NCBI GenBank assembly: GCA_028279705.1
Contig: JANQNF010000005.1
Span: 2,688 to 66,687 of the forward strand
Direction: 5' to 3'
From: an archaeon
Lineage (GTDB): Archaea > Aenigmatarchaeota > Aenigmatarchaeia > QMZP01 > JAFGSV01
DNA: 64,000 bases
The translations under genes and the position numbers were made by a program. Numbering within the stretch: position 1 is the stretch's first letter; every line of letters begins with the position of its first letter. Positions 2,350 through 64,000 of the stretch are shown here, piece by piece. The notes beneath the pieces are model-generated. The model was not told where the DNA came from. It did no database searches and saw nothing but the letters and a program-made list of their open reading frames with translations.

Positions 2350-4404
2350 ATGATTTCGGTTGACACGGAAACTACCGGTCTTGACTTTTATCATGGATGC
2401 GCACCGTTCCTCGTATCCATCTGTGATGAGGATCTCCAAGTTACGACATGGCAGTTTCCGGTCAACCCTCGTACTCGCATTCCCAAGGTTACTAAGCGTG
2501 ACCGGGATGAGATAGAATCCTATCTTGACCAGGACAAGGTCTTACAGAATAGTAAGTTTGACGTCCGTGCGTTACAGTCCATAGGCATCTGTATGGATTG
2601 GGACTGGGAACGCACAGAAGACACACTTATAGCAGGACACCTAGTAGCCAGTGGTGAATCCCACGAGTTGGGAAACATGGCGTTGAAGTACCTGGGAGTT
2701 GACATCAAACCGTTGGAGGAAAACCTACGGCAAGAAGTAATTAAGGCCAGAGCTCTAGCCAAGAAAAAGTATCCTGAATGGCGGCAAGCAAAGGAAGGCG
2801 ATCCGATGATGCCAAGCATGAAAGAAACTGCTTGGAAGGGGGATATGTGGTTACCTCAAGCCTTAGCAAACATGGAGGACTTACCCGAGGATCATCCTTG
2901 GTGGCATGTGCTGCCTGAGTACAACAACGGGGACAGTTCGGTAACCCTCAAATTGTGGGAAGTACAAAAAGAAATTCTACAAGAACGTGGGTTATGGGAA
3001 ATCTACCTAGAACGTAAGAAACTACTGAAGACCACCTACGATATGGAATCTATAGGGATTACCATGAACGTAGAACGGTTGAACGAACTCAATGACAGGT
3101 ATAGAGAAGAGAGTACAAAGGCTGAACAACTGTGTTTGAAACTAGCCGACGGGCACATAGATAAACTTCCAAAAGGCGGAACCAGCAAAGCTCTACGTAG
3201 TGTTATCTTCGATCACTTCAAACTACCTGTAGTAGTGAAGTCAAAGAAGACTCAGGAACCCTCAGTCAATAAAGTAGCAATAGAGCAGTGGATAGCTACT
3301 GTTCCAACAACAGAAAAGTCCTTCCATTTTATTAAAAACCTAAGGGACAAACGCAAGCGTGACACAGCCTCAGGTTATATGGAAGGTTACCTCAAAGTAG
3401 GATTACCCCTTTATGGCCCTTGGTACACTCTATTCCCCTACCTCAATATTACCGGGACTGATACCTTACGATTCAGTAGCAGCAATCCAAATGAGCAGAA
3501 TATTAGCAAACAAGAAGGGTTCAACCTCCGATACATTTTTGGTCCGCGCCCTGGAAGAGAGTGGTGGTCCGGCGATTATAAGAACATCGAGTTGCGGTTG
3601 CCAGCCTTCGAGTGCGGCGAAACTGAAATGGTCAACCTGTTCAACAATCCCGGCGAGCCACCCTATTACGGATCCTACCATTTACTTATCTGTGACGTTC
3701 TTCACCCAAAATGGTTCGGGCAACACGGAACAGACTTCAAAAACAAGTTCGCGTCGACGTGGTATCAGTGGACCAAGAATGGCAACTTTGCTGTCCAGTA
3801 TGGAGCCGTTGAATCTTCGGGTACAGCCGACTTGGCCTACCACGTTCCGGGGGCGCAAAGGAAGATTCAAGGGCGGTTCAAAAAGATCGCGCAGTTGAAT
3901 AAGGATATGATAGCTCATGCGGATGCTCACGGATATGTCACCACAATACCTTCCAAGGGTTTTGACCGCGGATACCCGTTACAATGTACACGAACCGAAT
4001 GGGGCAGAGTCAAACCAACTATCCCATTGAACTACCACGTTCAGGGAAGTGCGATGTGGGCTATGAGCTTAGCTATGAATCGATGTGACAACTTCCTAGA
4101 GCAGTGGAACCAGTCCGAGCTAGGGATAGCCAACACCAGCCAGATAATACAAGAACAGATGGAAGATCAAGCTTACTTCATGATTATGCAAATACATGAT
4201 GAGCTGGTCTTTGACTTCCCAGCCAAGCGTAGTAAGAACTGGGATCCTAAGAATCCAAAGGCTGAGCATCTAGGAAATGCACAGTTGGTACGTGAACTCA
4301 AACAACTCATGGAGCTCTCTGGAGAAGATATGAATACTCCTCTACCGGTCGGCTTCGATTATCACCCTGACACGTGGGACGTAGGCTATGGTATCAGTTT
4401 ATGA
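2350..4404 (+). CDS. Family-A (Pol I-type) DNA polymerase with 3'-5' exonuclease domain
   Basis: N-terminal Exo I motif VDTETTGL. Pol A motif B-like K..NGNFAVQYG and motif C QIHDELVFD. 684 aa. Confidence 0.85.
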   Translation: MISVDTETTGLDFYHGCAPFLVSICDEDLQVTTWQFPVNPRTRIPKVTKRDRDEIESYLDQDKVLQNSKFDVRALQSIGICMDWDWERTEDTLIAGHLVASGESHELGNMALKYLGVDIKPLEENLRQEVIKARALAKKKYPEWRQAKEGDPMMPSMKETAWKGDMWLPQALANMEDLPEDHPWWHVLPEYNNGDSSVTLKLWEVQKEILQERGLWEIYLERKKLLKTTYDMESIGITMNVERLNELNDRYREESTKAEQLCLKLADGHIDKLPKGGTSKALRSVIFDHFKLPVVVKSKKTQEPSVNKVAIEQWIATVPTTEKSFHFIKNLRDKRKRDTASGYMEGYLKVGLPLYGPWYTLFPYLNITGTDTLRFSSSNPNEQNISKQEGFNLRYIFGPRPGREWWSGDYKNIELRLPAFECGETEMVNLFNNPGEPPYYGSYHLLICDVLHPKWFGQHGTDFKNKFASTWYQWTKNGNFAVQYGAVESSGTADLAYHVPGAQRKIQGRFKKIAQLNKDMIAHADAHGYVTTIPSKGFDRGYPLQCTRTEWGRVKPTIPLNYHVQGSAMWAMSLAMNRCDNFLEQWNQSELGIANTSQIIQEQMEDQAYFMIMQIHDELVFDFPAKRSKNWDPKNPKAEHLGNAQLVRELKQLMELSGEDMNTPLPVGFDYHPDTWDVGYGISL

Positions 4405-5275
4405 TCTGGTTGAAATGAATGATAACCTTGTTAATGAATTCATCTATTGGGCAAAGGAACGTCACAGCATACACCTTAAAAGGGAAGCTGGTAAACCTAA
4501 GCCGTGGACCAAGGACCCGATACTCCAACGGTACTTCTTCACTAACCCTTACAGGGAGAATGACAAGACTACCGTATGGTTCCGGGAAACAGTACGAGAT
4601 CCAATTGCTGCCAAGCCTCAGGTCTTCTTTTCTACTGTGTGCTTCCGTTGGTTCAACTACATCCCAACAGGACAAGTACTCCATGATCTACAACTTCTGT
4701 ATGCGTGGGATTGTGAATTAGCTATTGCAAAACTGAACGACATCCTACGATCCGGGCGCAAGGTATTCACAGGGGCGTTTACCATCAGCCCTAGCGGAAG
4801 CACCAAGCCAAAGATCCAGCGTGTATGCGAAGACTACATCCAACCAGTATGGGACGACCTGTCAAGCATCGTTGGCCAACTGTACAAGGCCGACACACTG
4901 AAACGCGCATGGCAAGTTGTATCTTCTCTCCCAGGAATGGCTGGCGGAGGATTCATGGCCTATGAAGTAGTTTCAGACCTGCGGTATACTGAGTTCCTAA
5001 GAAACGCTGAAGACATCAATCTGTGGGCTAACCCCGGTCCTGGTGCCAAGCGAGGACTCAACCGTCTAATGATGAGAGAAATCAAAAGCCCAATCAACCA
5101 ACCATTGTGGGAAGACCAGACCCAGGAACTTCTTAAGATCGTTAATAAACGTCTACCCAAAAATATGCCACGGTTTGAGATGCGTGAAATTGAACACAGT
5201 CTGTGTGAGTTTGACAAGTACCTACGGGCGAGAACCAAGTCCGGCAGAATGAAAAGGAAATACGATGGTGTTTAA
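4388..5275 (+). CDS. Hypothetical protein; possible nucleotide/DNA-base modification enzyme (aGPT-Pplase-like, tentative)
   Basis: 295 aa, overlaps the polymerase stop. Motifs ILQRYFFTNPYRENDKTT, VSDLRYT and NPGPGAKRGL recall the thymine hypermodification pyrophosphorylase-like domain. Recognised from memory only. Confidence 0.45.
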   Translation: MVSVYDLVEMNDNLVNEFIYWAKERHSIHLKREAGKPKPWTKDPILQRYFFTNPYRENDKTTVWFRETVRDPIAAKPQVFFSTVCFRWFNYIPTGQVLHDLQLLYAWDCELAIAKLNDILRSGRKVFTGAFTISPSGSTKPKIQRVCEDYIQPVWDDLSSIVGQLYKADTLKRAWQVVSSLPGMAGGGFMAYEVVSDLRYTEFLRNAEDINLWANPGPGAKRGLNRLMMREIKSPINQPLWEDQTQELLKIVNKRLPKNMPRFEMREIEHSLCEFDKYLRARTKSGRMKRKYDGV

Positions 5276-5489
5276 TTGCAGGTTCCGTGAAGGTCCGTTG
5301 GATGGTAGATTAGCAGAAGTGTCCATTACTGAACCTTTCAAGGTTGGTATGTTCATCACTGTTGAAGGATGCACCTACGAAATCCTCAATGGTGCGGCTG
5401 CTCAACACCACGAGCAGAAACAAGAAGGACATCCTAACTTGGCTGTGAGTGCTAGTTATGTTGATGATAAGAACCTTTCTGGTGTCTGA
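5265..5489 (+). CDS. Hypothetical small protein
   Basis: 74-aa ORF in a co-directional array; overlaps the upstream stop. Confidence 0.3.
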   Translation: MVFNCRFREGPLDGRLAEVSITEPFKVGMFITVEGCTYEILNGAAAQHHEQKQEGHPNLAVSASYVDDKNLSGV

Positions 5490-5808
5490 TCTTCCTTTGG
5501 AGTTGTTCTGTAAGCAGTTGTGTACGTTCAATTCTAAAAAGCTAAAGAAGAGCAGGCGTCATTCTCTTTACTTGGAAAACGTGAAATGGTACAGAGAAGA
5601 CAATGGGTTATTCACAGTGACTGTGAAATTTCTCAGAGGAGAAAAATTCACTTACCGATTTATCAAGGCCGGAGGAACGTTCAGCTATTCTCCTTTCCGT
5701 GACTGCGATCACAGCAAACTGTTGAAAGTCCTAGCAGATAACCAGAGGAAGACCCGTGAAAATATTCAGGTGGAATCAAATCAGGGAAGCCGTAGCGTAT
5801 GCGGTTGA
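5449..5808 (+). CDS. Hypothetical protein
   Basis: 119-aa ORF; start uncertain (alternative ATG at 5458). Confidence 0.3.
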   Translation: MLVMLMIRTFLVSDLPLELFCKQLCTFNSKKLKKSRRHSLYLENVKWYREDNGLFTVTVKFLRGEKFTYRFIKAGGTFSYSPFRDCDHSKLLKVLADNQRKTRENIQVESNQGSRSVCG

Positions 5809-6088
5809 AGACCCTGATAACACCGCTTTGCATTTACATTACTTCATAACGCCTACAGCTCCTGCTTGCTTCAAGAGGGATGTAGGTAGGAGATTACCGA
5901 TTGCTCACTTGTTTGGACAGGACGCAAAACTATTGGAGGCAATAGCAAGACATGCTGGAGTGAACAAAATCGTTATCGAACGTACGAACACTCCTCGCCA
6001 GCACATTGATTTGTGTGGAGCTCCTTTACGTAGAGTGCTTGAGGAGTGTGGCGAGGATATAAACAACTACAGGTTGGAGGAGGACTGA
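5756..6088 (+). CDS. Hypothetical protein
   Basis: 110-aa ORF; overlaps its neighbours; stop overlaps the next start. Confidence 0.3.
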   Translation: MKIFRWNQIREAVAYAVEDPDNTALHLHYFITPTAPACFKRDVGRRLPIAHLFGQDAKLLEAIARHAGVNKIVIERTNTPRQHIDLCGAPLRRVLEECGEDINNYRLEED

Positions 6089-7221
6089 TGAAAGTAGCCA
6101 TAGTCAATTGGCCGATTAATGACGTAGGAGGCATCAACACCTACTGCGAAAACATGATAGCAGGGTTTAGAACTTTGGGAGGGTATGAAGTGGATCTAAT
6201 CCACGCCACACCACAACTCAAGTACAACAATGCGAAACATGGTGAACGGGTGAACCAGACTACCAAGCGAAGGTTCACAATCTTGGAAGGTTATCATTTC
6301 AGTTACAACGACCAGCACGTAACCGAAGCTGTAGATGCTTTGAATACTTACGATCTCGTGATATTCTTGCATCCTAGTCCACATCCTACCAAGGCTGTGA
6401 AAGAACATCCATGTCATTTGAATTGGCAAGCCTTATACAATGAGTTGACCGTTCCTGACTTGGTAATCTTCCACGACGCCAATTGGGCGAAGACGAACTC
6501 GTGGTTTGCTGACGTTGCTGACCGGGTAGATGCAGCACTAGGAGCCCAACATATATTCTTCCCAAGTATTGAGCAGTATCCAGCCAACTGCCCAAAGACC
6601 TGGGAATACTTTCCATTGAACTTAGAGCAGATGTTAAGTGACTCAGCAGAGGAGGACAAGGTAGAACAGGGGATTCTAGCTACTCAGTGGTTAAAGTGGA
6701 AGAACCATCACAAGTTCTTACCAGTCATGCCTCAGATCAAATACCCTATCATGGTGTTTGGTAGCGGTATGGAATATCACAACCTAGCCAAGACCCCGGA
6801 GTTCGCTGAGGCTTTCAACATCGACTACACAACAGACAAGGAGTACAACCCAGACTCTCCACACGAATACCATGGATACGTAGACTATGTGTACGTCATG
6901 GTGGAGATGGCTCGGTCTACCTTTAGTATCGATCTGTCAACTAAGGGTTACACGAACATGACCCATTGGGAGCCGATGGCCTGCGAGACCCTTAATTTAA
7001 TCCACGAAGATGTACTTGCTAACGAGTACTGTGAGATCCCAGACGATTGTTGTATGACATTCAACTTTGGGAATGTTGCCGACGTCATCAACGAAACGAT
7101 GGAAAATCCTGACTGGATTGACAAGCGTGTTACCAACGCTTCCAAGTTCATTACTAAGTGTGACAACGTTCAGGTTGTCAGCCGTATCATGTCCTGGTTA
7201 AAGAAAGAAGGTGTTGTATGA
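6088..7221 (+). CDS. GT-B fold glycosyltransferase; candidate DNA (hydroxymethyl-pyrimidine) glucosyltransferase
   Basis: RBS GGAGGAGG then ATG at 6088. The N-terminus MKVAIVNWPINDVGGINTY...GGYEVDLIHA is a typical GT-B Rossmann start and resembles the T4 alpha-glucosyltransferase N-terminus (MRICIFMARGLEGCGVTKF...GHEVTLVYA). Confidence 0.5.
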   Translation: MKVAIVNWPINDVGGINTYCENMIAGFRTLGGYEVDLIHATPQLKYNNAKHGERVNQTTKRRFTILEGYHFSYNDQHVTEAVDALNTYDLVIFLHPSPHPTKAVKEHPCHLNWQALYNELTVPDLVIFHDANWAKTNSWFADVADRVDAALGAQHIFFPSIEQYPANCPKTWEYFPLNLEQMLSDSAEEDKVEQGILATQWLKWKNHHKFLPVMPQIKYPIMVFGSGMEYHNLAKTPEFAEAFNIDYTTDKEYNPDSPHEYHGYVDYVYVMVEMARSTFSIDLSTKGYTNMTHWEPMACETLNLIHEDVLANEYCEIPDDCCMTFNFGNVADVINETMENPDWIDKRVTNASKFITKCDNVQVVSRIMSWLKKEGVV

Positions 7222-7622
7222 CTCACTATCATGTTACAAGCCTAATCCTAGGAGCGATTCTCACTGTTGGGATTTTCACAGGCTGTTGTGAACAGACTAA
7301 GATGGAACGTTCCCTCGAATACGAAGAAGGGATCAAAAGTCACAACACAGGTATGTCACTTCACGAGAATCCTTACAGCGATGCTGTTGGGAGAAAGGAA
7401 CGGGAACATAAAGCTTACTGGACAAACGGTTGGCTGGACGCCGAGCTCGAAGAACAAGAACACGACGAAGAGTACGAGTCAGAAAGAAACGTAGCTATCC
7501 TCGCTACCATACGTTTGAAACGGTTGGAGAAAGCAGAAGAACGTATTGAAGAGTTGGAAGCCCGTATCAACACTATGCAAGCGTTACAGGAGGAGTTCTA
7601 TGCAACGTTCCGTAACCGTTGA
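7218..7622 (+). CDS. Hypothetical protein, possible lipoprotein with C-terminal coiled coil
   Basis: MTHYHVTSLILGAILTVGIFTGCC has a signal-like segment with Cys. C-terminal acidic coiled coil. Confidence 0.45.
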   Translation: MTHYHVTSLILGAILTVGIFTGCCEQTKMERSLEYEEGIKSHNTGMSLHENPYSDAVGRKEREHKAYWTNGWLDAELEEQEHDEEYESERNVAILATIRLKRLEKAEERIEELEARINTMQALQEEFYATFRNR

Positions 7623-7797
7623 TTATATGTACGATGACAACGAGTGTGATCTTTTTGACAAACTCAAAGAAGTATTGGCAAGCATCGGAGTGGAGGTCGA
7701 GATGGTTGACCCCGATCCACCAGATCTGGAATCGTTAACCATGGAATTCACAAACACACTAGTCGAGGACAACCAGCAGATCGAGCCAGTCGGATGA
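7600..7797 (+). CDS. Hypothetical small acidic protein
   Basis: RBS AGGAGG 7 nt upstream of ATG 7600. 65 aa. Stop overlaps the next start. Confidence 0.35.
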   Translation: MQRSVTVDYMYDDNECDLFDKLKEVLASIGVEVEMVDPDPPDLESLTMEFTNTLVEDNQQIEPVG

Positions 7798-8690
7798 GAT
7801 TATTCAACACCCTATCCTTGGAAATCAACGCACAGTGTAATCGCAAGTGCAAGTTCTGTCCTGTAGCTTACAACACTAGACCTGATGAACGGATGGCTAT
7901 CGGGTTGGTCAACAAAGCAGCAGCGGAGCTTGCTCACCTTAACTACAAAGGGAGGATCGAACTCTACATATACAACGAACCGCTCAAGGACAAAACCTAT
8001 CTGCGACAAGTCACAAAGCTGTTGCGCAAGCACGTCCCTAAGTGTACTCTGATGATTGCCACTAACGGTGACTACATCCGGGACTACACAGACATCATGG
8101 AGATGTATGAGTGGGGGATGAACCAAGTCCTCATTAACTGCTACAGTCCTGGTCTGTATGAACGCCGACAAGTATGGTTCAGTGGATTACCTGCTGAAGT
8201 ACGTAGACACAAGAGCGTGTACGACCAAGGCTTCAAAGGCAAGTGCATACAGATGCTAGACAAGTCTTCTCCCCAGAAGTTTGGTACGGGAATCTTTTCC
8301 TTGACAAACCGTGCAGGTAATATAGACCAGTTCTTACCTGTAGTAGAAGAACCTTTGCAGAAGATGTGTGTGCGCCCGTTCAGGTTACTTAACATTAACT
8401 GGCTTGGACAAGCCTTAGTGTGCTGCCAAGATTACCACGCAGACGTTCCTATCGGGAATTTACAGGACAACACATTAGTAGAACTCTGGAATCATCCGGT
8501 GCTCAATACCTACCGAAAGCATTTATCCGAGAAGGACAGAACTTTACCTCTGTGCAACCAGTGCGACTGTCACTCCGGTGCGTATCCGGGAAATGTGGAC
8601 AAGAGTTTTGGAAAACCAGCCAGTCGCCATGAAATTGCTAACATCCATGCGACCAACGTAAGGAGAAGAAATCGTGCATCTAAAGTTTAG
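7794..8690 (+). CDS. Radical SAM enzyme with C-terminal SPASM/twitch-like Cys cluster
   Basis: CNRKCKFC (CxxxCxxC) at residues 15-22. C-terminal CCQDY...CNQCDC cluster. Start overlaps the upstream stop. Confidence 0.7.
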   Translation: MRLFNTLSLEINAQCNRKCKFCPVAYNTRPDERMAIGLVNKAAAELAHLNYKGRIELYIYNEPLKDKTYLRQVTKLLRKHVPKCTLMIATNGDYIRDYTDIMEMYEWGMNQVLINCYSPGLYERRQVWFSGLPAEVRRHKSVYDQGFKGKCIQMLDKSSPQKFGTGIFSLTNRAGNIDQFLPVVEEPLQKMCVRPFRLLNINWLGQALVCCQDYHADVPIGNLQDNTLVELWNHPVLNTYRKHLSEKDRTLPLCNQCDCHSGAYPGNVDKSFGKPASRHEIANIHATNVRRRNRASKV

Positions 8691-9825
8691 AAACGTTAAC
8701 GAAGCTTTTGATTTCATACTCAAGGGAGTCACAGACGGTAGTATTCCAACGATCGATTCAGGGTCTAGAAACGGAGATGTTGTTCAGATCCCTGAAGTAT
8801 TGACGATCACCTACCTACGTCCTTGGGAGCGAGTTCTGTTTAACAGCGGAAGGGATTGCAATCCGTTCTTTCACCTGTACGAAGCTATGTGGATGCTTGC
8901 CGGTCGGGAGGACGTAGCGTCGCTTGAGTACTTCAACAGCCAGATGGCTCAGTACAGTGACGATGGTAAAGTATTCAACGGTGCTTACGGTAACCGATGG
9001 CGCAACTGGAAAGTACCAAGATGGACTCAAGGACATAATATGTCCGATCCGGACCTACTCTATTGGGAAGGAATAGACCAACTAGAAGTCATTGCGAAGA
9101 ATCTGACCCGGGATAATAACAGCCGACGAGAGGTTCTAGAGATGTGGAGCGTTCACAGCGACCTCCTACGCAACCGTAGTAGTAAGGATGTCTGCTGTAA
9201 CCTTGTAGTCACGTTCCAGATCGTTGATGCGTTCGGGGCTAAGAAGTTGGACATGTCCGTGTTCAATCGTAGCAACGATACGATCTGGGGACTGCTCGGT
9301 GCCAACGTAGTACATTTCAGCTTTCTGCACGAGTGGATGGCTTCTATGTGTGGGGTCAAGATGGGCTTGTACAACCAGATCAGTGTCAATGCGCACTTCT
9401 ACGCTGACAAGTTCACACCCGAAAAATGGATTGGGGATACGACGCCGGATTTGTATCTGGATGCTCTTCCAATAAACCTCACACCCCTTATTGAGGATAA
9501 GAACCAGTGGGAGCGGGACGTACTGACGTTCTGTGAAAATCCATACAACTCAGACAACCCTGAACTGCCGTTCACCCGTAGTCTGAGTAAGAAGTTGTTG
9601 TACGACGAACCGTTCTTTACCAAGGTTGCTATTCCTGCTTGTAAAGCATTCCATGCGCACAAGAATCGGAAGTATGAAGATGCTTTCCGGTTTGCTTCAA
9701 CCATCGAATCAACAGATTGGCAGTTCGTGTGCACAGAATGGTTGATGAAGCGGGAAAGATGGTACAAAGAAAGGATCCGTAAGTCCGGCAACCCATACGC
9801 TAAACTTTCACAACAAGATCAATGA
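8674..9825 (+). CDS. Thymidylate synthase-family enzyme, probably a deoxypyrimidylate hydroxymethylase or methylase, with a ~120-aa C-terminal extension
   Basis: FHLYEAMWMLAG, NGAYGNRWRNW and VCCNLVVTFQ align with ThyA motifs ELLWFLKG, GPVYGKQWRAW and PCHAFFQFYV. The conserved substrate Asn is present in GLLGANVV. 383 aa versus ~264 for ThyA. Confidence 0.8.
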   Translation: MHLKFRNVNEAFDFILKGVTDGSIPTIDSGSRNGDVVQIPEVLTITYLRPWERVLFNSGRDCNPFFHLYEAMWMLAGREDVASLEYFNSQMAQYSDDGKVFNGAYGNRWRNWKVPRWTQGHNMSDPDLLYWEGIDQLEVIAKNLTRDNNSRREVLEMWSVHSDLLRNRSSKDVCCNLVVTFQIVDAFGAKKLDMSVFNRSNDTIWGLLGANVVHFSFLHEWMASMCGVKMGLYNQISVNAHFYADKFTPEKWIGDTTPDLYLDALPINLTPLIEDKNQWERDVLTFCENPYNSDNPELPFTRSLSKKLLYDEPFFTKVAIPACKAFHAHKNRKYEDAFRFASTIESTDWQFVCTEWLMKRERWYKERIRKSGNPYAKLSQQDQ

Positions 9826-10060
9826 GATGATTATCTTCTTGATAGTAATCTGTTGCCAGCTTGCAATAATCGCTTACTTGTTATACGAGATTGATAAATC
9901 AATAAACAGTAAACCCTGAGAGGATGAATAATGCCCTTAACCTCGGACCAGCAACGGGAATCTAAAGCCAAACTCGAAGTCTGGCAAGAACTTTCCAAAG
10001 CTTTGAAGAATCTCAACAAATTCCTAGACCTACTTATCAAAGAAGCGGAGAAGAAAGCTA

Positions 10061-11098
10061 ATGACAACTAGAACCGAACCAGACCTGCGACACCTAGACT
10101 TCCTAGAAAGGGTAGCAGGGCTCGACGTGAACCAAGTTGAAGAGAAGGACCGCAGCTACGGAGGTAGTTGGAAGCGTCGTGGCGGAGTCGGCGTCTTTAT
10201 GATGCTTGCTCGCAAGTGGGACCGGCTTGAAAACATGATGGCCAATCCTCAGGCTCTGGTAGCTGGTCCTAAACATCCAACCAAAGAACAAGGCGAACAC
10301 GAGTGCTTCCTATGGGACAAGTACGATATCATAGGGGCCATAGAATCCCAGATCACTAGAGGTCAAGTTCCTGGTGATGCCCCAGACGGTACGGTCCTGG
10401 CCGAAGTCCGCGACCTGCGCCGTTACCTGTTACTGTTGGAGGCCGAGCTACTCAGCCGCGACCATACTCAAAACGCCAATCCCCATGTCGTTCGAGCTAT
10501 GGAAAGATTAGAAAAGGAAGGCACTGTTGTAGGGGAGGATGCTGTCACCCTGATGCAAAGTCAAGCTGTTGGGAGAAGGGTAGAAGCAGTTCAAGCTTCA
10601 GGATCTAGAACCCATCAGACTGATCATCAATATCGGGTTCAGCAATTCATGGAAAAAGCAGGTCAGGAGATTCCTGACCAACCTACCATCCCTGACTTCG
10701 AAGTACGCAAGCTACGTGCAAGGCTGATCTTCGAAGAAGCAATGGAAACCATTGAGGCGATGGGAATTTCCATACGCCATCACATAGTCCACTCTAATAA
10801 CGAGATTTGGTTGGACTCATTCCATAGCACCTACCGGGTCGAGTTTCTCAATAAGGGGGAATGCGTTATCGAGGACGTTGCCGACGGTTGTGCGGATCTG
10901 TCTGTTGTCAACGAAGGTACGTTACTGGCCTTCGGTATCCGGGACAACCCACTACTACAAGAAGTGGACGAAGCCAACCTACGCAAGTTCCGGGGGGATG
11001 CTCACAGGGACGAAGGGGGTAAGTGGATCAAGCCTTCGGACTGGCAACCACCTAACATCGCCAAAGTATTGGAGGACCAAGGATATGACCCTACCTGA
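10061..11098 (+). CDS. Tandem MazG-like all-alpha NTP pyrophosphohydrolase
   Basis: Two MazG-like segments (SYGGSWKRRGGVGVFMMLARKWDRLE; EVRKLRARLIFEEAMETIEAM...EDVADGCADLSVV with the E..AD..L signature). Confidence 0.55.
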   Translation: MTTRTEPDLRHLDFLERVAGLDVNQVEEKDRSYGGSWKRRGGVGVFMMLARKWDRLENMMANPQALVAGPKHPTKEQGEHECFLWDKYDIIGAIESQITRGQVPGDAPDGTVLAEVRDLRRYLLLLEAELLSRDHTQNANPHVVRAMERLEKEGTVVGEDAVTLMQSQAVGRRVEAVQASGSRTHQTDHQYRVQQFMEKAGQEIPDQPTIPDFEVRKLRARLIFEEAMETIEAMGISIRHHIVHSNNEIWLDSFHSTYRVEFLNKGECVIEDVADGCADLSVVNEGTLLAFGIRDNPLLQEVDEANLRKFRGDAHRDEGGKWIKPSDWQPPNIAKVLEDQGYDPT

Positions 11099-14139: not shown

Positions 14140-14598
14140 ATGGATAGCTTTCACGGTCTTAACGGGTTCAAGTTGGATTACTATCCGGCGTTTCAACCAC
14201 AGCAATATGCAAACTACACCCCTTCCTCAGCCTCATCTAGTGAGTTCTATGAATCGATGGAGAAGGCTAGAAGACGTATGCAAGAGTTGAAAGCAGGTGA
14301 GAGATACTACATTGAGAGCCACTGCTTCATGCTTCTTAATGAATCTACTATGAGATCCTGGCAGCTACGCATCCATCATCTTACACCAGAACCTAGATGT
14401 GCCTGTCCATTTAATTTCCTGAACGAATACGACAGATGGTTCGAGTGGCAGAAGTTGGTTCAGTTTGAAAGGATGAACACCTTGGAAGCAGCAGTTAAGG
14501 TGACCGGAGTTACCAGGATCTGGGTTATCGAACCTCCCAGGTTCGATCCCCTGTCCGTGATGAGACAACCTTTATGGAGCCCTAAGAATGATGACTGA
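14140..14598 (+). CDS. Hypothetical protein
   Basis: 152-aa ORF; ATGA overlap with the next gene. Confidence 0.45.
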   Translation: MDSFHGLNGFKLDYYPAFQPQQYANYTPSSASSSEFYESMEKARRRMQELKAGERYYIESHCFMLLNESTMRSWQLRIHHLTPEPRCACPFNFLNEYDRWFEWQKLVQFERMNTLEAAVKVTGVTRIWVIEPPRFDPLSVMRQPLWSPKNDD

Positions 14599-15082
14599 CT
14601 GTGAAATCCTTGCAGTCACTGGTCACAGACCTCCAAAGCTAGGGGGGTATGATCTTCTCCTATTTGATTGCCTAGTGCGCTTTGCTGTTACAGAACTCAA
14701 GCAAATCCAACCAGAGTACGTCCTTACAGGTATGGCGTTAGGTTGGGACCAAGCAATAGCGGAAGCCTGTGACAGGATTGGTATCCCGTTCATAGCCTGC
14801 TTACCGCACGACAATCCAGGAAGTAACTGGCCAGACCATAGCCGTGAGTACCTAGACCAGTTACTGAACAAAGCACATGACATCTGGTGGTGTCCGGGAG
14901 GACCGTACGAACCACAGAAGATGCAGATACGTAACGAAACAATGGTGGATGAGTGTGACACGTTGCTTGCCCTGTACGACGGAGAGCCACAAGGCGGAAC
15001 TCATAACTGTGTGAACTACGCACAAATGGAAAGCAACTGCCTAATCATCAACTGTTGGGAACGATGGGAACCCTTTATCTAA
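14588..15082 (+). CDS. SLOG-superfamily Rossmann protein (YpsA/DUF1273- or DprA-like)
   Basis: N-terminal ILAVTGHRPPKLGGYD matches the YpsA-type start (vTGyr..eLgif). A glycine-rich turn MALGWDQAIAEA follows. Confidence 0.4.
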   Translation: MMTDCEILAVTGHRPPKLGGYDLLLFDCLVRFAVTELKQIQPEYVLTGMALGWDQAIAEACDRIGIPFIACLPHDNPGSNWPDHSREYLDQLLNKAHDIWWCPGGPYEPQKMQIRNETMVDECDTLLALYDGEPQGGTHNCVNYAQMESNCLIINCWERWEPFI

Positions 15083-15102
15083 TTAACACTGAGGAAATAA
15101 AT

Positions 15103-15552
15103 ATGGGAATGATAACCGTGAGACTACCCGATACCAAGCACGAAGGTATCAAACTGGCAGCGGAGGACGCTGGCCTAAGTATGAATACTTGGTGCGTTCA
15201 AAAACTCTGCCAAGCCGCAGGAAAGTTTGTGCCTCCTGAACCCCAAGAGATCATTCTAGAAGGTGGTCCTCTGCACAACACTCTTCACCAGACCGAAGAC
15301 ATTGTCACTCATCTGGTACTAGACGAACCAGATCACTTGTACCAATTGAGGGCTGATGAAATTGCTAAGATCAGTCCCGTCCCACCGTTACGAAACCAGT
15401 ACACCTACAAAAGAAGTGGAGAACGCAAGCACAGGTATCCAGCAGAAGGTACAAGAGTTCTAACCCCCATTTTCAAATTCATCTCAGTGAACGTTATTAC
15501 CAATGATGCAGATCTTTCCCCACAAAGTAGTGAACAAGATTCACTGCGGTAA
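15103..15552 (+). CDS. Ribbon-helix-helix (HicB/Arc-like) DNA-binding protein with C-terminal extension
   Basis: RBS GAGGAA then ATG 15103. ITVRLPDTKHEGIKLAAEDAGLSMNTWCVQKL is an RHH signature. Confidence 0.5.
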   Translation: MGMITVRLPDTKHEGIKLAAEDAGLSMNTWCVQKLCQAAGKFVPPEPQEIILEGGPLHNTLHQTEDIVTHLVLDEPDHLYQLRADEIAKISPVPPLRNQYTYKRSGERKHRYPAEGTRVLTPIFKFISVNVITNDADLSPQSSEQDSLR

Positions 15553-16363
15553 CTGTGCCCACGTACTCCGTAAGATGGTCCCAGACCAAGTCATTGATCT
15601 CACAGTCACCAGCCCACCGTATGACGATCTCCGTGCTTACGAGGGGTTCAAGTTTGACTGGCGTAGTATCATCAAGCAACTATGGCGAATTACCAAGATC
15701 GGCGGAGTTGTGGTCTGGGTCGTGGCTGATCAAGTAGAAGACGGTAGTGAGACTGGAACCAGTTTCCAACAAGCTATCTTCTTCCAAGCTGTAGGCTTCA
15801 GACTCCACGACACTATGATCTATCGTCGGGCTCCCAGGTTCCCAGACGTTATCCGCTATCCTCAGTGGTTTGAGTATATGTTCGTGTTCAGTAAGGGACC
15901 ACCCAAAACGTTCAATCCTATTTGTGACCGCAAGAACACTACAGCCGGGACTAAGGGAGGCAACAGACGCCGCGATCCTAAGACCGGTGAAGTTGTAGGC
16001 ACAGGCCAAGAGAAGAACGTTCGTAAGGACTACGGAGCACGTGAGAATATATGGACTTACCTAGCAGGTAGTGCCGAGAGTGAAGACCTGGGACATCCAG
16101 CTAAGTTCCCTGATCAGCTTGCTATGGATCACATCCTAAGCTGGTCTGATCCTGGCGACCTTGTCCTAGATCCTATGTGTGGTAGCGGCACGACCTGTGC
16201 TATGGCCAAGAAAGCCGGGCGCGAATACGTAGGTATTGACATTAGTGAGAACTACTGCCAGATTGCTCGTGGTACAGTGGAGTCTCACCAACTAGCTGCC
16301 GAGTTCGAGACCGGCACACCTTCCTCCCAGAGAAAGCCAATAGGCGGAAAAGGATTACTATGA
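15503..16363 (+). CDS. Beta-class DNA methyltransferase (N6-adenine or N4-cytosine)
   Basis: Motif IV DLTVTSPPY precedes motif I DPMCGSGTT (permuted beta-class order). Confidence 0.8.
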   Translation: MMQIFPHKVVNKIHCGNCAHVLRKMVPDQVIDLTVTSPPYDDLRAYEGFKFDWRSIIKQLWRITKIGGVVVWVVADQVEDGSETGTSFQQAIFFQAVGFRLHDTMIYRRAPRFPDVIRYPQWFEYMFVFSKGPPKTFNPICDRKNTTAGTKGGNRRRDPKTGEVVGTGQEKNVRKDYGARENIWTYLAGSAESEDLGHPAKFPDQLAMDHILSWSDPGDLVLDPMCGSGTTCAMAKKAGREYVGIDISENYCQIARGTVESHQLAAEFETGTPSSQRKPIGGKGLL

Positions 16364-17199
16364 CGACCAGCACTAAAACAGTATGTGAATGTCTTGATTT
16401 GTTACTCCCTCTGATTCCAGAAGACGAACCCATGTACACTGAGTTGAAGTACATGAGGGATAATATCTTCATGGAACTACCTGAGAACACCTTCAGCTTG
16501 ATGCAAGAAACTTACAAGATCATGCAGGAGCACATAACTCCGGGTGGTGTAGAAGACCTGAAACAGTGGGAGCACGATCTATGTGTGCGGTGGAAAGAAT
16601 ACTGGAATCCAACAGGTCAGGAACCTGCTCCTACTCCACCTAACCGGACTGAACAGAAGTATCCGGGCATACATACGTGGATTGCAACGTCTATAGGTCA
16701 AGAGTTCGATCTCGCTGAACCTAACCCTAAGATTATCCACATCGATGACATCGCCCAAGGATTGAGCAACATCTGCCGGTACGCTGGTCAGTGCAACAAG
16801 TTCTACAGTGTAGCTCAACACAGCGTAATTGTTGCCAGGAATGTTCCTAAGGAGTTGCGTCTGCCTGCTTTACTACACGATGCGGCGGAAGCCTACATTG
16901 GGGACATCACAGCACCCCTCAAAAGGATGCTCGGTAACGTGTGGCACGAGATTGAGTGGTCTATTGACGTAGCAATCGCGGAGGCCTTTGATTTCTCCCC
17001 AGAGTTGTTTGACGCCCCCGAAATTGAGCTTGCTGATAAGCGAGCTATGATGGCCGAGGTCAGGGATCTGTTTAATCACAAACCAAACATACCTCCCTAC
17101 GCCGAACCTTTGGAAGAACGCATAAGCCCGATGATCCCGTTCGATGCCCGACATTTATTTTTGGGCGAGCTCAGCAAGTACAGGTGGGAATCAAAGTGA
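16360..17199 (+). CDS. HD-domain phosphohydrolase (YfbR-like 5'-deoxynucleotidase family)
   Basis: ALLHDAAEAYIGDI carries the H..HD...GD motif. ATGA overlap with the methyltransferase. Confidence 0.7.
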   Translation: MTTSTKTVCECLDLLLPLIPEDEPMYTELKYMRDNIFMELPENTFSLMQETYKIMQEHITPGGVEDLKQWEHDLCVRWKEYWNPTGQEPAPTPPNRTEQKYPGIHTWIATSIGQEFDLAEPNPKIIHIDDIAQGLSNICRYAGQCNKFYSVAQHSVIVARNVPKELRLPALLHDAAEAYIGDITAPLKRMLGNVWHEIEWSIDVAIAEAFDFSPELFDAPEIELADKRAMMAEVRDLFNHKPNIPPYAEPLEERISPMIPFDARHLFLGELSKYRWESK

Positions 17200-63138: not shown

Positions 63139-64000
63139 TATGAAACTCACAATAGGTATGGCAACCTATCAGGACTACGACGGTCTTCACTTCACCGTCC
63201 AAAGTCTTAGGATGCACAGTAAGATCCACGAGGATGACAACGTTGAGTTGTTAGTCGTGGACAACTGTCCATCTCACAAGGATGCCTCACGCATCAAGCA
63301 ACTCACTGAGTGTACTAATCACGGAGGAAAAATCCGTGGCCGGTACATTCCAATGGAAACACCCGTCGGAACTTCTGCGCCTCGGCAAAGAATTTTCGAT
63401 GAAGCTGAAGGAGACGTGGTGCTCTGTATGGACAGCCATGTCCTCCTTCCAACCGATACACCATCGCGTCTCCTTCACTTCTTTAGTGAGAACCCAGACA
63501 CCCCGAACCTGTATACCGGTCCAATGATCTATGACGGAATGGGTATGATGTCTACCCACTTCGATATGATCTGGCGGTCCGAGATGTGGGGGATCTGGGC
63601 ACATGCTTGGAGATGCAAGTGTGGTCATCCTTTCACAGTGATTAACCCTGAAGATATTGGCAAAGACGATGACAAGCCAATACAATTCCACAGCCTGGAG
63701 TTTGAGGTTAAAAACCACAGACGCAAACGCTGTGCCGAATGTTACCAGCCGTTCCCTGTCAACATCCGTTGGCCAGGACACCAACAAATCCTGAAGCAGA
63801 AGTTCGGGTACACACAAGCTGGTTGGACCGACGACGAACCTATCTTTAAGATCCCTGCTATGGGGTTAGGTTTATTCACCTGCCGGAAAGACGCTTGGCT
63901 CGGGTTCCTTGAAGGTCACAGAATGTTCGGTGGTGAAGAAGGGTACATACATGAGAAGTATGAACAAGCCGGGCACTCTACATTCTGTTTACCGTGGCTC
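63139..64000 (+). CDS. GT2-family (GT-A fold) glycosyltransferase; 3'-truncated by the window end
   Basis: RBS GGAGGA then ATG 63139. KLTIGMATYQDYDGLHFTVQSL start, VVDNCPSHKD and CMDSHV (DxD-like) motifs. Open to the end of the window. Not in the ORF track. Confidence 0.65.

Follow-up and report, generated by a model that had tools for sequence, protein, structure and literature searches.

The window analysed here, a stretch of 64,000 bp (64 kb) of contig JANQNF010000005.1, is part of an uncultivated phage genome of approximately 75 kb and contains, between positions 4388 and 11098, a gene cluster that probably encodes a pathway for thymidine hypermodification, in which 5-hydroxymethyldeoxyuridine (5-hmdU) would be glycosylated without a DNA kinase and the sugar tailored by a radical S-adenosylmethionine (SAM) enzyme. 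The cluster is a tightly packed rightward run of genes, all on the plus strand, downstream of a family A DNA polymerase (PolA; Table 1). Six genes proposed by a first-pass annotation of this DNA were recovered at these positions and on this strand with database support for each, and every enzyme class that it had named was verified, either by profiles or by structure prediction. The co-directional, coupled arrangement that it had described holds as well, with junctions overlapping by 1 to 17 nt, which fits tight coupling: 17 nt for PolA/PF18723, 1 nt for orf110/glycosyltransferase, 4 nt for both glycosyltransferase/orf134 and orf65/radical-SAM, and 17 nt for the overlap already claimed between the radical-SAM gene and the thymidylate synthase (TS) homologue. 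Its scheme of hydroxymethylation, direct glycosylation and radical-SAM chemistry without a kinase is the best-supported model, given the recurrence of the gene block and the pairing of the radical-SAM enzyme with a glycosyltransferase.

Table 1. Genes discussed in the text, in coordinates of the 64-kb window, with the evidence for each assignment.
Feature	Coordinates	Strand	Evidence
Family A DNA polymerase with 3'-5' exonuclease	2350..4404	+	Pfam DNA_pol_A, E 1e-30; DNA_pol_A_exo1
Stand-alone PF18723 protein (HMUDK_hel, formerly aGPT-Pplase clade 1)	4388..5275	+	Pfam E 9.4e-51, whole length
GT-B glycosyltransferase, fold nearest to T4 alpha-glucosyltransferase	6088..7221	+	AF2 model, Foldseek against PDB
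BtrN-like radical-SAM enzyme with SPASM/twitch auxiliary-cluster domain	7794..8690	+	Pfam SPASM, E 8e-12; Radical_SAM, E 6e-5
TS-family enzyme, predicted dUMP 5-hydroxymethylase	8674..9825	+	Thymidylat_synt (PF00303), E 1.4e-19, residues 68-248 of 383
Two-part MazG protein; C-terminal all-alpha MazG/DR2231-like NTP pyrophosphatase	10061..11098	+	PRA-PH, E 1.1e-6, residues 193-306
YfbR-like HD 5'-deoxynucleotidase domain, C-terminal (candidate)	16360..17199, outside the 4388-11098 span	+	Weak Pfam match and motif
Family-2 (GT-A) glycosyltransferase, 5' part of a 688-aa gene	63143..64000, runs off the window	+	Pfam Glycos_transf_2 (PF00535), E 2.7e-12

The strongest evidence comes from comparative genomics. 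The gene order PolA, PF18723, GT-B, radical-SAM, TS homologue, (MazG), primase is retained in two diverged phages from IMG/VR, L004 and L005. Identity to the window is 54-60% for the PF18723, glycosyltransferase and radical-SAM proteins of L004 and 37% for its TS homologue, and ranges from 29 to 56% in L005. The four core genes adjoin one another in L004, which is without the small open reading frames (ORFs) that interrupt them in the window.

A profile scan of IMG/VR with the radical-SAM family gave 56 loci, which were annotated by local phmmer queries and Pfam; the locus counts include near-identical contigs, with about 11 distinct architectures by our own grouping, and with the small query set and few Pfam calls used, unfamiliar partner genes may be missed. 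All radical-SAM homologues of at least 37% identity with enough flanking sequence lie beside, or one gene from, a glycosyltransferase, in many cases with an overlap of 4 nt between the two genes. The type of glycosyltransferase varies: it is a GT-B enzyme resembling the alpha-glucosyltransferase (AGT) of phage T4 in the window, L004/L031 and L005/L023, a Glycos_transf_1-type GT-B in L027-L030, and the Pfam TET-associated glycosyltransferase (TAGT) in L007, L009/L026, L012, L014-L022, L024, L025 and L032. The source of the hydroxymethyl group varies too, and consists of a TS homologue with Asn at its specificity position (see below) together with PF18723 (the window, L004, L005, L013, L015, L024, L027-L030 and L032), of a TS homologue with Asp together with a C5 methylase (L020), or of ParB and Tet_JBP proteins (L007, L012, L016-L019, L021 and L022). 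PF18723 is present in every TS(Asn) locus and in none of the Tet/JBP loci. A constant radical-SAM enzyme, combined with a replaceable glycosyltransferase and an interchangeable hydroxymethyl source, is what is expected if the enzyme works on the sugar handled by the glycosyltransferase, rather than on the base or on a protein partner. The more distant radical-SAM/SPASM loci (L034-L068; 21-32% identity) had no partner genes with the query set used.

Several of these loci have a gene content of their own. L032 (4133-10917) combines an amino-acid:DNA transferase (AADT), a 5-hmdU DNA kinase, PF18723, TAGT, a BtrN-like radical-SAM enzyme, a TS homologue and an HD protein in one cluster, and its phage may decorate thymidine in two different ways or with one composite group. 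L020 (1126-5299) encodes the radical-SAM enzyme, TAGT, a C5 DNA methylase and a TS homologue of 278 aa that has Asp at the specificity position, without PF18723; this apparent cytosine version suggests that the pair of glycosyltransferase and radical-SAM enzyme also decorates 5-hydroxymethylcytosine (5-hmC). In L024 an FkbM-type methyltransferase gene is located between the radical-SAM and TAGT genes. The ParB/Tet_JBP loci (L016-L022; e.g. L016 2599-3507) have at the same place a conserved protein of approximately 300 aa, which has no Pfam match and may be a further tailoring enzyme. In L009/L026 (7174-10779), TAGT and the radical-SAM gene are directly upstream of a PolA with an N-terminal fusion to uracil-DNA glycosylase (UDG), the polymerase genes are interrupted by inteins, and the 8-kb flanks revealed no source of the hydroxymethyl group.

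The radical-SAM enzyme of the window contains both of the domains that had been claimed for it, and its only sequence match in the PDB is BtrN (4m7s; E 1.8e-22, residues 2-258). BtrN is a radical-SAM dehydrogenase of butirosin biosynthesis, which oxidizes a ring hydroxyl of 2-deoxy-scyllo-inosamine to a ketone. Among 33 homologues the cysteines of the CX3CX2C motif (C15/C19/C22) are at least 90% conserved and C192, C210/C211, C254 and C257 are invariant, with the C-terminal cysteines aligning with the cysteine-containing motifs of the C-terminal domain of BtrN. The family comprises at least 126 clusters at 40-62% identity, many of them on phage-sized contigs, and no close member is found in 50,697 GenBank phage records. 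By analogy with BtrN, the enzyme is predicted to modify the sugar, either once it is linked to DNA or still in the nucleotide-sugar precursor, for instance by oxidation of an alcohol to a ketone. A role as dehydrogenase is suggested by the BtrN homology together with the invariable glycosyltransferase neighbour, and we would put the specific alcohol-to-ketone step at somewhat below an even chance. The basic isoelectric point (pI) of the enzyme, 9.3, and the same value for the PF18723 protein lend weak support to contact with nucleic acid.

SPASM/twitch dehydrogenases also include enzymes that oxidize primary alcohols, such as anSME, which acts on Ser/Cys. The radical-SAM enzyme might act on the base itself, on this precedent converting the 5-hydroxymethyl group to 5-formyluracil, or else forming a C-C bond at the C5 methylene in the manner of M6 gp53, with the glycosyltransferase serving another acceptor or a subset of sites. 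The basic pI and the presence of the enzyme in one cluster with AADT and kinase in L032 are in line with such a role, and M6 gp53 is a precedent for radical-SAM chemistry on DNA-linked thymidine adducts (PMC8989533). We nevertheless consider action on the base unlikely: the radical-SAM gene never occurs without an adjacent glycosyltransferase gene, even in L032, where the partner is TAGT; it accompanies sources of both the hydroxymethyluracil and the hydroxymethylcytosine type (L020); its sole solved relative is the cyclitol dehydrogenase BtrN and not anSME or SPL; and M6 gp53 is an unrelated, SPL-like protein, whose counterpart MP1412_12 found nothing in the window by tblastn.

The glycosyltransferase has no profile match in Pfam, PHROGs or NCBIfam, and its GT-B family is absent from the 50,697 GenBank phage records. 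Its homologues form 46 clusters, all metagenomic and all of approximately 360-390 aa, of which three carry the GT-B Pfam domains PF13524 or PF13439; since they begin with MKIAIV, the ATG at position 6088 is the real start. An AlphaFold (AF2) model based on 36 of the 46 clusters reached a pLDDT (predicted local distance difference test) of 95.2 and a pTM (predicted TM-score) of 0.92, and shows two Rossmann-like domains. In a Foldseek search of the PDB, ranks 1-8 were all T4 AGT chains (1y6f, 1xv5, 1y8z and others; E 1.7e-13 to 7.4e-12, TM 0.69-0.72), the top matches including complexes with hydroxymethyluracil-containing DNA, and GT4-type GT-B enzymes followed at ranks 9-50. The likeness to AGT that the first-pass annotation had suggested is thus borne out, with T4 AGT as the best solved match; judged from the model, this fold-level likeness to the T4 DNA enzyme is real, whereas membership of the AGT family at the sequence level cannot be claimed at approximately 14% identity. 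The glycosyltransferase is predicted from its modelled fold to put a sugar on 5-hmdU in DNA.

That these genes do not constitute one DNA pathway, with an ordinary TS and with the glycosyltransferase and radical-SAM enzyme modifying a glycan on the host surface, a protein of the phage or some small molecule, seems quite unlikely to us. GT-B folds of the GT4-like kind that fill ranks 9-50 act mostly on non-DNA acceptors, the substrate of BtrN is a small molecule, a second glycosyltransferase (GT2) is located near tail genes, and that the DNA is modified is something that we infer. Against this, it is specifically a DNA enzyme, T4 AGT, that heads the structural matches; the pair of radical-SAM and glycosyltransferase genes recurs beside Tet_JBP/ParB, TAGT, PF18723 and TS homologues within replication modules; the TS homologue scores below every ThyA equivalog cut-off and has hydroxymethylases as its nearest matches; and PF18723 is restricted to thymidine-hypermodifying contexts (PMC5889632).

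The label aGPT-Pplase-like, given earlier to the PF18723 protein, fits its Pfam match. The protein is 295 aa long and, despite the Pfam name, neither fused to nor located beside a 5-hmdU DNA kinase. The family comprises 2062 clusters at E<=1e-5, and since most listed homologues are stand-alone proteins of approximately 290-300 aa, the name "kinase helical domain" describes these proteins poorly. A control Pfam scan of the M6-like phage MP1412 assigned its M6 gp51-type protein to PF18724 (ADDT, the amino-acid:DNA transferase family formerly called aGPT-Pplase2), its gp55-type protein to PF18723 and its kinase to PF18748. The AlphaFold model of the PF18723 protein (pLDDT 93.7) is all-helical, with a helix-hairpin-helix, DNA-glycosylase-like fold closest to the AADT of PaMx11, so that in terms of modelled structure it has a base-flipping fold and is distantly paralogous to the amino-acid:DNA transferases. 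Its probable role is to recognise or flip 5-hydroxymethyluracil (5-hmU) in DNA.

The statement that no P-loop kinase for hydroxymethyluracil in DNA is evident could be extended to nearly the whole genome. The search covered the window plus 10 kb upstream (from a Logan contig), i.e. approximately 74 kb of the approximately 75-kb genome; in its six-frame translation, M6-like and L032 queries for kinase, AADT, Nmad5 and TAGT gave no phmmer match at E<=10, and tblastn and phmmer found no M6-like kinase, AADT, pyridoxal-phosphate (PLP) enzyme, SPL-like radical-SAM enzyme or Nmad5. Pfam gave no match to PF18724 in the window, and the cluster lacks the 5-hmdU DNA kinase (PF18748) that marks a kinase-dependent system. 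A strict Walker A pattern located P-loops only in a UvrD-type helicase and an AAA_24 protein, and a looser one added a match in L011, in a segment rich in lysine and read from the opposite strand. In the sampled flanks of L004 and L005, the nearest relatives, no kinase or AADT homologue was detected.

These negative results weigh on a scheme of the M6/ViI type, in which an unrecognised kinase would phosphorylate 5-hmdU before substitution, with PF18723 as the transferase. It could appeal to the structural paralogy of PF18723 with AADT, to the joint occurrence of kinase, AADT, PF18723, TAGT and radical-SAM enzyme in L032, and to SP10 gp186C, in which an aGPT-Pplase-type domain is fused to a kinase (PMC5889632; its assignment to PF18723 is our reading of the Pfam name). 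With kinase and AADT homologues missing from the sequence searched and from the sampled flanks of L004 and L005, and with strict P-loops confined to the two proteins named, we regard this scheme as very unlikely.

The TS homologue aligns with phrog_5131 (E 2.8e-94) over residues 3-368 and is 37% identical over 95% of its length to the M6/YuA/MP1412 group (MP1412_16), whose members are in places annotated as deoxyuridylate hydroxymethyltransferase; PhiJL001 gp24 is a further relative (36% identity). The long C-terminal extension noted earlier is present, but is common to the whole M6-like clade and not special to this gene. Whether the gene is an ordinary ThyA was checked against the NCBIfam equivalogs, and it lies far below every cut-off: the best score is 65 bits against a cut-off of 174.55 (TIGR03283), and the others range from 24 to 51 against 108 to 427. 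Among solved structures its closest match is to the CMP hydroxymethylase MilA (E 1.3e-14), with E. coli ThyA at approximately 3e-8. Residues C175, R199, S200 and D202 correspond to C146, R166, S167 and D169 of E. coli and are invariant in 16 clade members. At the specificity position, E. coli N177, Asn marks dUMP enzymes and Asp marks dCMP/CMP enzymes; HMMER alignments place N211 of the window there, where MilA has Asp. In a local alignment of the 16 clade members, Asn occupies this position in 14 of the 14 PF18723-linked homologues, the window included, and the sole exception, L020, has Asp, is without PF18723 and adjoins a C5 cytosine methylase. Asn at this position makes dUMP the predicted substrate, and the pyrimidine target proposed at first is narrowed to uracil/thymidine. 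The predicted product, 5-hmdUMP, is what clade membership, the MilA match and the gene context would suggest, M6/YuA/MP1412-type Pseudomonas phages being known to replicate through 5-hmdU DNA (PMC8989533). A T4-like system making glucosyl-5-hydroxymethylcytosine, favoured by the resemblance of the glycosyltransferase to T4 AGT and by a CMP hydroxymethylase as best PDB match of the TS homologue, is scarcely credible in view of Asn at N211 where MilA has Asp, its conservation across the clade while the hmC-type L020 has Asp, the failure to detect a dCTPase, and the presence in the clade of enzymes of M6-like phages shown to pass through 5-hmdU (PMC8989533), and a cytosine target was rejected on the specificity position.

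The genes for nucleotide supply were only partly as annotated. The MazG protein, conserved across its full length in L004, matches phrog_671 (nucleotide pyrophosphohydrolase; E 5e-25), and its MazG domain matches the Deinococcus MazG-like protein DR2231 (E 3e-8, residues 191-341). One MazG domain is detectable, and the tandem proposed at first was supported neither by self-comparison, which revealed no similarity between the halves (E 0.59), nor by a Pfam scan, in which the N-terminal 150 residues (10061-10510) had no match at E<=5. These 150 residues are kept in L004 and have no detectable family. Judged by its family, the MazG domain is predicted to hydrolyse dUTP and/or dTTP, clearing the pool for 5-hmdUTP and supplying dUMP. 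For the proposed HD 5'-deoxynucleotidase the metal-binding motif is clear (H...LLHDAAEAYIGD, read as ...AQHS...ALLHDAAEAYIGD), whereas the match to the YfbR-like profile is weak (E 0.004-0.01; 16-17 bits against a cut-off of 25.9); by sequence the protein is a candidate dTMPase. In M6-like phages and in PhiJL001, analogous YfbR-like genes come after that for the TS homologue, and in L005 an NT5C 5'-nucleotidase gene is found just before it. Pfam scans of approximately 45 further ORFs of the window revealed no dNMP kinase, dCMP deaminase or dUTPase; with no phage dNMP kinase detected, it would fall to enzymes of the host, or to unrecognised ones, to turn 5-hmdUMP into 5-hmdUTP.

From these elements we propose the following pathway. 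Before replication, the TS homologue would, as its family membership suggests, convert dUMP to 5-hydroxymethyl-dUMP, while the MazG pyrophosphatase and HD nucleotidase, again going by family, would deplete dUTP/dTTP and dTMP and feed dUMP; dTTPase/dUTPase and dTMPase roles of this kind have been described for hmU phages (PMC8989533, PMC13458397). The phage PolA would then incorporate 5-hmdU instead of T. After replication, as fold and context suggest, the AGT-like glycosyltransferase would flip 5-hmdU and move a sugar from a nucleotide sugar onto the hydroxymethyl group, this glycosylation being direct and without activation by phosphate. The radical-SAM enzyme would subsequently tailor the sugar, the likeliest reaction being one initiated by a 5'-deoxyadenosyl radical, in which a secondary alcohol is oxidized to a ketone and, as in BtrN, the auxiliary [4Fe-4S] cluster takes up the two electrons; alternatively, it could act earlier, on the nucleotide-sugar donor. 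PF18723, as obligatory partner of the TS route, would help to recognise 5-hmU in fully substituted DNA. The outcome would be a bulky, non-canonical glycosyl-hydroxymethyluracil shielding the DNA from host nucleases.

Several points weigh against this pathway. The identities of base and sugar are inferences, as is the sequence in which the steps occur. The hydroxymethylase call leans on clade, MilA match and context, and not on a diagnostic residue. The glycosyltransferase is acidic (pI 5.1). The substrate of BtrN is a free small molecule, and by that analogy the radical-SAM enzyme may never touch DNA. In characterised systems PF18723 was dispensable for amino-acid transfer, as the M6 reconstitution found for glycine transfer and the gp55 paralogue (PMC8989533). 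In the nucleotide branch, the HD assignment depends on a weak profile match and a motif, and the failure to find a phage dNMP kinase or dCMP deaminase leaves a gap.

The phage is remote from all cultured phages: its PolA shares no more than 25% identity with the polymerase of any of them, and the 6.7-kb span had zero matches in a nucleotide search against GenBank phages. The small ORFs located between the enzyme genes (5265-5489, 5756-6088, 7218-7622 and 7600-7797) are conserved in neither L004 nor L005, and were rejected as members of the pathway for this reason. The 134-aa ORF between the glycosyltransferase and radical-SAM genes (7218-7622, plus strand) has a lipoprotein-like signal at its N-terminus (…ILTVGIFTGC…), while its C-terminus is acidic and coiled; it resembles a moron inserted at this place. 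Further downstream, the same operon encodes on the plus strand a YpsA/SLOG-family protein (14588-15082), a HicB-like protein (15055-15552) and an N6/N4 DNA methyltransferase (15503-16363; E 2e-33), which would represent a second, independent DNA modification function. Whether the GT2 gene at the end of the window belongs to the pathway is uncertain; its product might lengthen a DNA glycan or modify a surface glycan. The remainder of this gene is found in the Logan contig ahead of the window sequence; contig and window are thus permuted with respect to each other, as a circular or circularly permuted genome would lead one to expect. Upstream of position 1 of the window, L011 encodes a UDG-family protein (7013-7573, ~2.3-2.8 kb upstream) and a CsrA homologue (9811-10014, ~0-0.2 kb upstream), whose gene overlaps the first bases of the window. 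The presence of a UDG deserves notice in a phage for which manipulation of the dUMP and dUTP pools is predicted.

Phage DNA hypermodifications govern resistance to restriction enzymes, CRISPR and glycosylase-based defences, and the enzymes responsible have supplied tools for epigenomic sequencing and DNA labelling. To our knowledge, the known thymidine pathways all proceed via phosphorylated 5-hmdU and an amino-acid or amine transferase. The pathway proposed here would, if correct, add a new branch, a new class of radical-SAM enzymes acting on DNA or a DNA glycan, and probably a new nucleoside; its chemistry would be widespread, as many uncultivated phages contain the module, combined with three different sources of hydroxymethylpyrimidine, and could help to explain virome DNA that is hard to sequence or amplify. 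We tentatively go further and suggest that this may be the first radical-SAM enzyme to tailor a DNA-attached glycan, or to convert an O-glycoside into a C-linked polyol (compare the dihydroxypentyluracil of SP-15), and that glycosyltransferase and BtrN-like enzyme may form a portable module. The DNA would then contain thymidine bearing a sugar, whether keto-, amino-, deoxy- or C-linked, that is of a kind unseen in any genome, made by two genes that plug onto TS-type hmU, TS-type hmC or Tet/JBP sources. The locus is also a direct handle on the function of PF18723, a family of more than 2000 clusters that always occurs with the TS route.

Phage T4 makes glucosyl-hydroxymethylcytosine with the dCMP hydroxymethylase gp42 and alpha- and beta-glucosyltransferases. 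As in T4, a TS-family hydroxymethylase would act before replication and an AGT-like GT-B enzyme is predicted to act on the hydroxymethyl group; unlike in T4, the predicted base is uracil (Asn instead of Asp), identity to AGT is approximately 14%, a radical-SAM enzyme and PF18723 are added, and no dCTPase was detected. The radical-SAM enzyme itself resembles BtrN in its near full-length alignment, its CX3CX2C motif, its four auxiliary-cluster cysteines and its size, and differs in being encoded in a phage DNA-modification cluster, in which no partner aminotransferase was found, and not in an aminoglycoside cluster.

The clusters of phages M6, PaMx11, ViI, phiW-14 and SP10 are the closest characterised systems, and comprise a dUMP hydroxymethylase, a 5-HMUDK kinase, AADT/aGPT-Pplase2 and tailoring enzymes (PMC5889632, PMC8989533). 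The locus has in common with the M6-type the TS clade (37% identity), the PF18723 partner (35-41%), an HD nucleotidase, proximity to PolA, and a scheme of pre-replicative 5-hmdU with subsequent post-replicative decoration and tailoring, M6 too having a radical-SAM step. Unlike the M6-type, it is without P-loop kinase, AADT (PF18724), PLP or flavin adenine dinucleotide (FAD) enzyme and Nmad5; the predicted sugar would be joined directly to the hydroxyl, instead of an amino acid or amine displacing a phosphate; and its radical-SAM enzyme is BtrN-like, whereas M6 gp53 is SPL-like.

Glycosylated thymidine occurs in the DNA of the Yersinia phage YerA41 and the Bacillus phage SP-15, and in phages related to them aGPT-Pplase1 is found without detectable 5-HMUDK (bioRxiv 10.1101/2025.03.26.645540). 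Together with base J of kinetoplastids these share the product class, sugars being attached via the C5 substituent of T/U, although base J is made, unlike here, by JBP dioxygenases and an unrelated glycosyltransferase, and GenBank phage records, which should include YerA41 and SP-15, contain no close homologue of the radical-SAM enzyme and no homologue of the GT-B family. The same downstream module of glycosyltransferase and radical-SAM enzyme, the latter at 46-48% identity in L007, L012 and L016-L022, is found in the ParB/Tet-JBP and TAGT modules of metagenomic phages (PMC13229309; Cell Rep 2024, bioRxiv 10.1101/2023.12.21.572611), in which a dioxygenase hydroxymethylates selected sites after replication and which have no TS homologue and no PF18723; the radical-SAM enzyme is mentioned in neither PMC13229309 nor bioRxiv 10.1101/2023.12.21.572611.

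In gene content, the closest parallels without a kinase are the alphaproteobacterial phage PhiJL001 (gp19 PF18723, gp22 TAGT with E 2.7e-53, gp23 Nmad5, gp24 TS, gp25 HD, and PolA) and the HTVC023P-type pelagiphages, which encode TS, aGPT-Pplase1, a 5'-nucleotidase and a glucosyltransferase near PolA (PMC9599517). Both share with the locus a kinase-less set of PF18723, glycosyltransferase, TS and 5'-nucleotidase beside PolA, known there from genes alone; PhiJL001 differs in having TAGT instead of an AGT-like GT-B and in possessing Nmad5, and no radical-SAM gene was found in the 25-kb region of it that was examined. The first-pass claim of an undescribed pathway consequently stands for the part formed by radical-SAM enzyme and glycosyltransferase, a BtrN-like enzyme as fixed partner of a DNA glycosyltransferase having found no mention in the open-access papers searched, and does not stand for the combination of TS, aGPT-Pplase1, 5'-nucleotidase and glycosyltransferase near PolA, already known from pelagiphages (PMC9599517) and PhiJL001. 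The combinatorial principle of thymidine hypermodification clusters is established; what would be new is the chemistry predicted for this one, together with its product.

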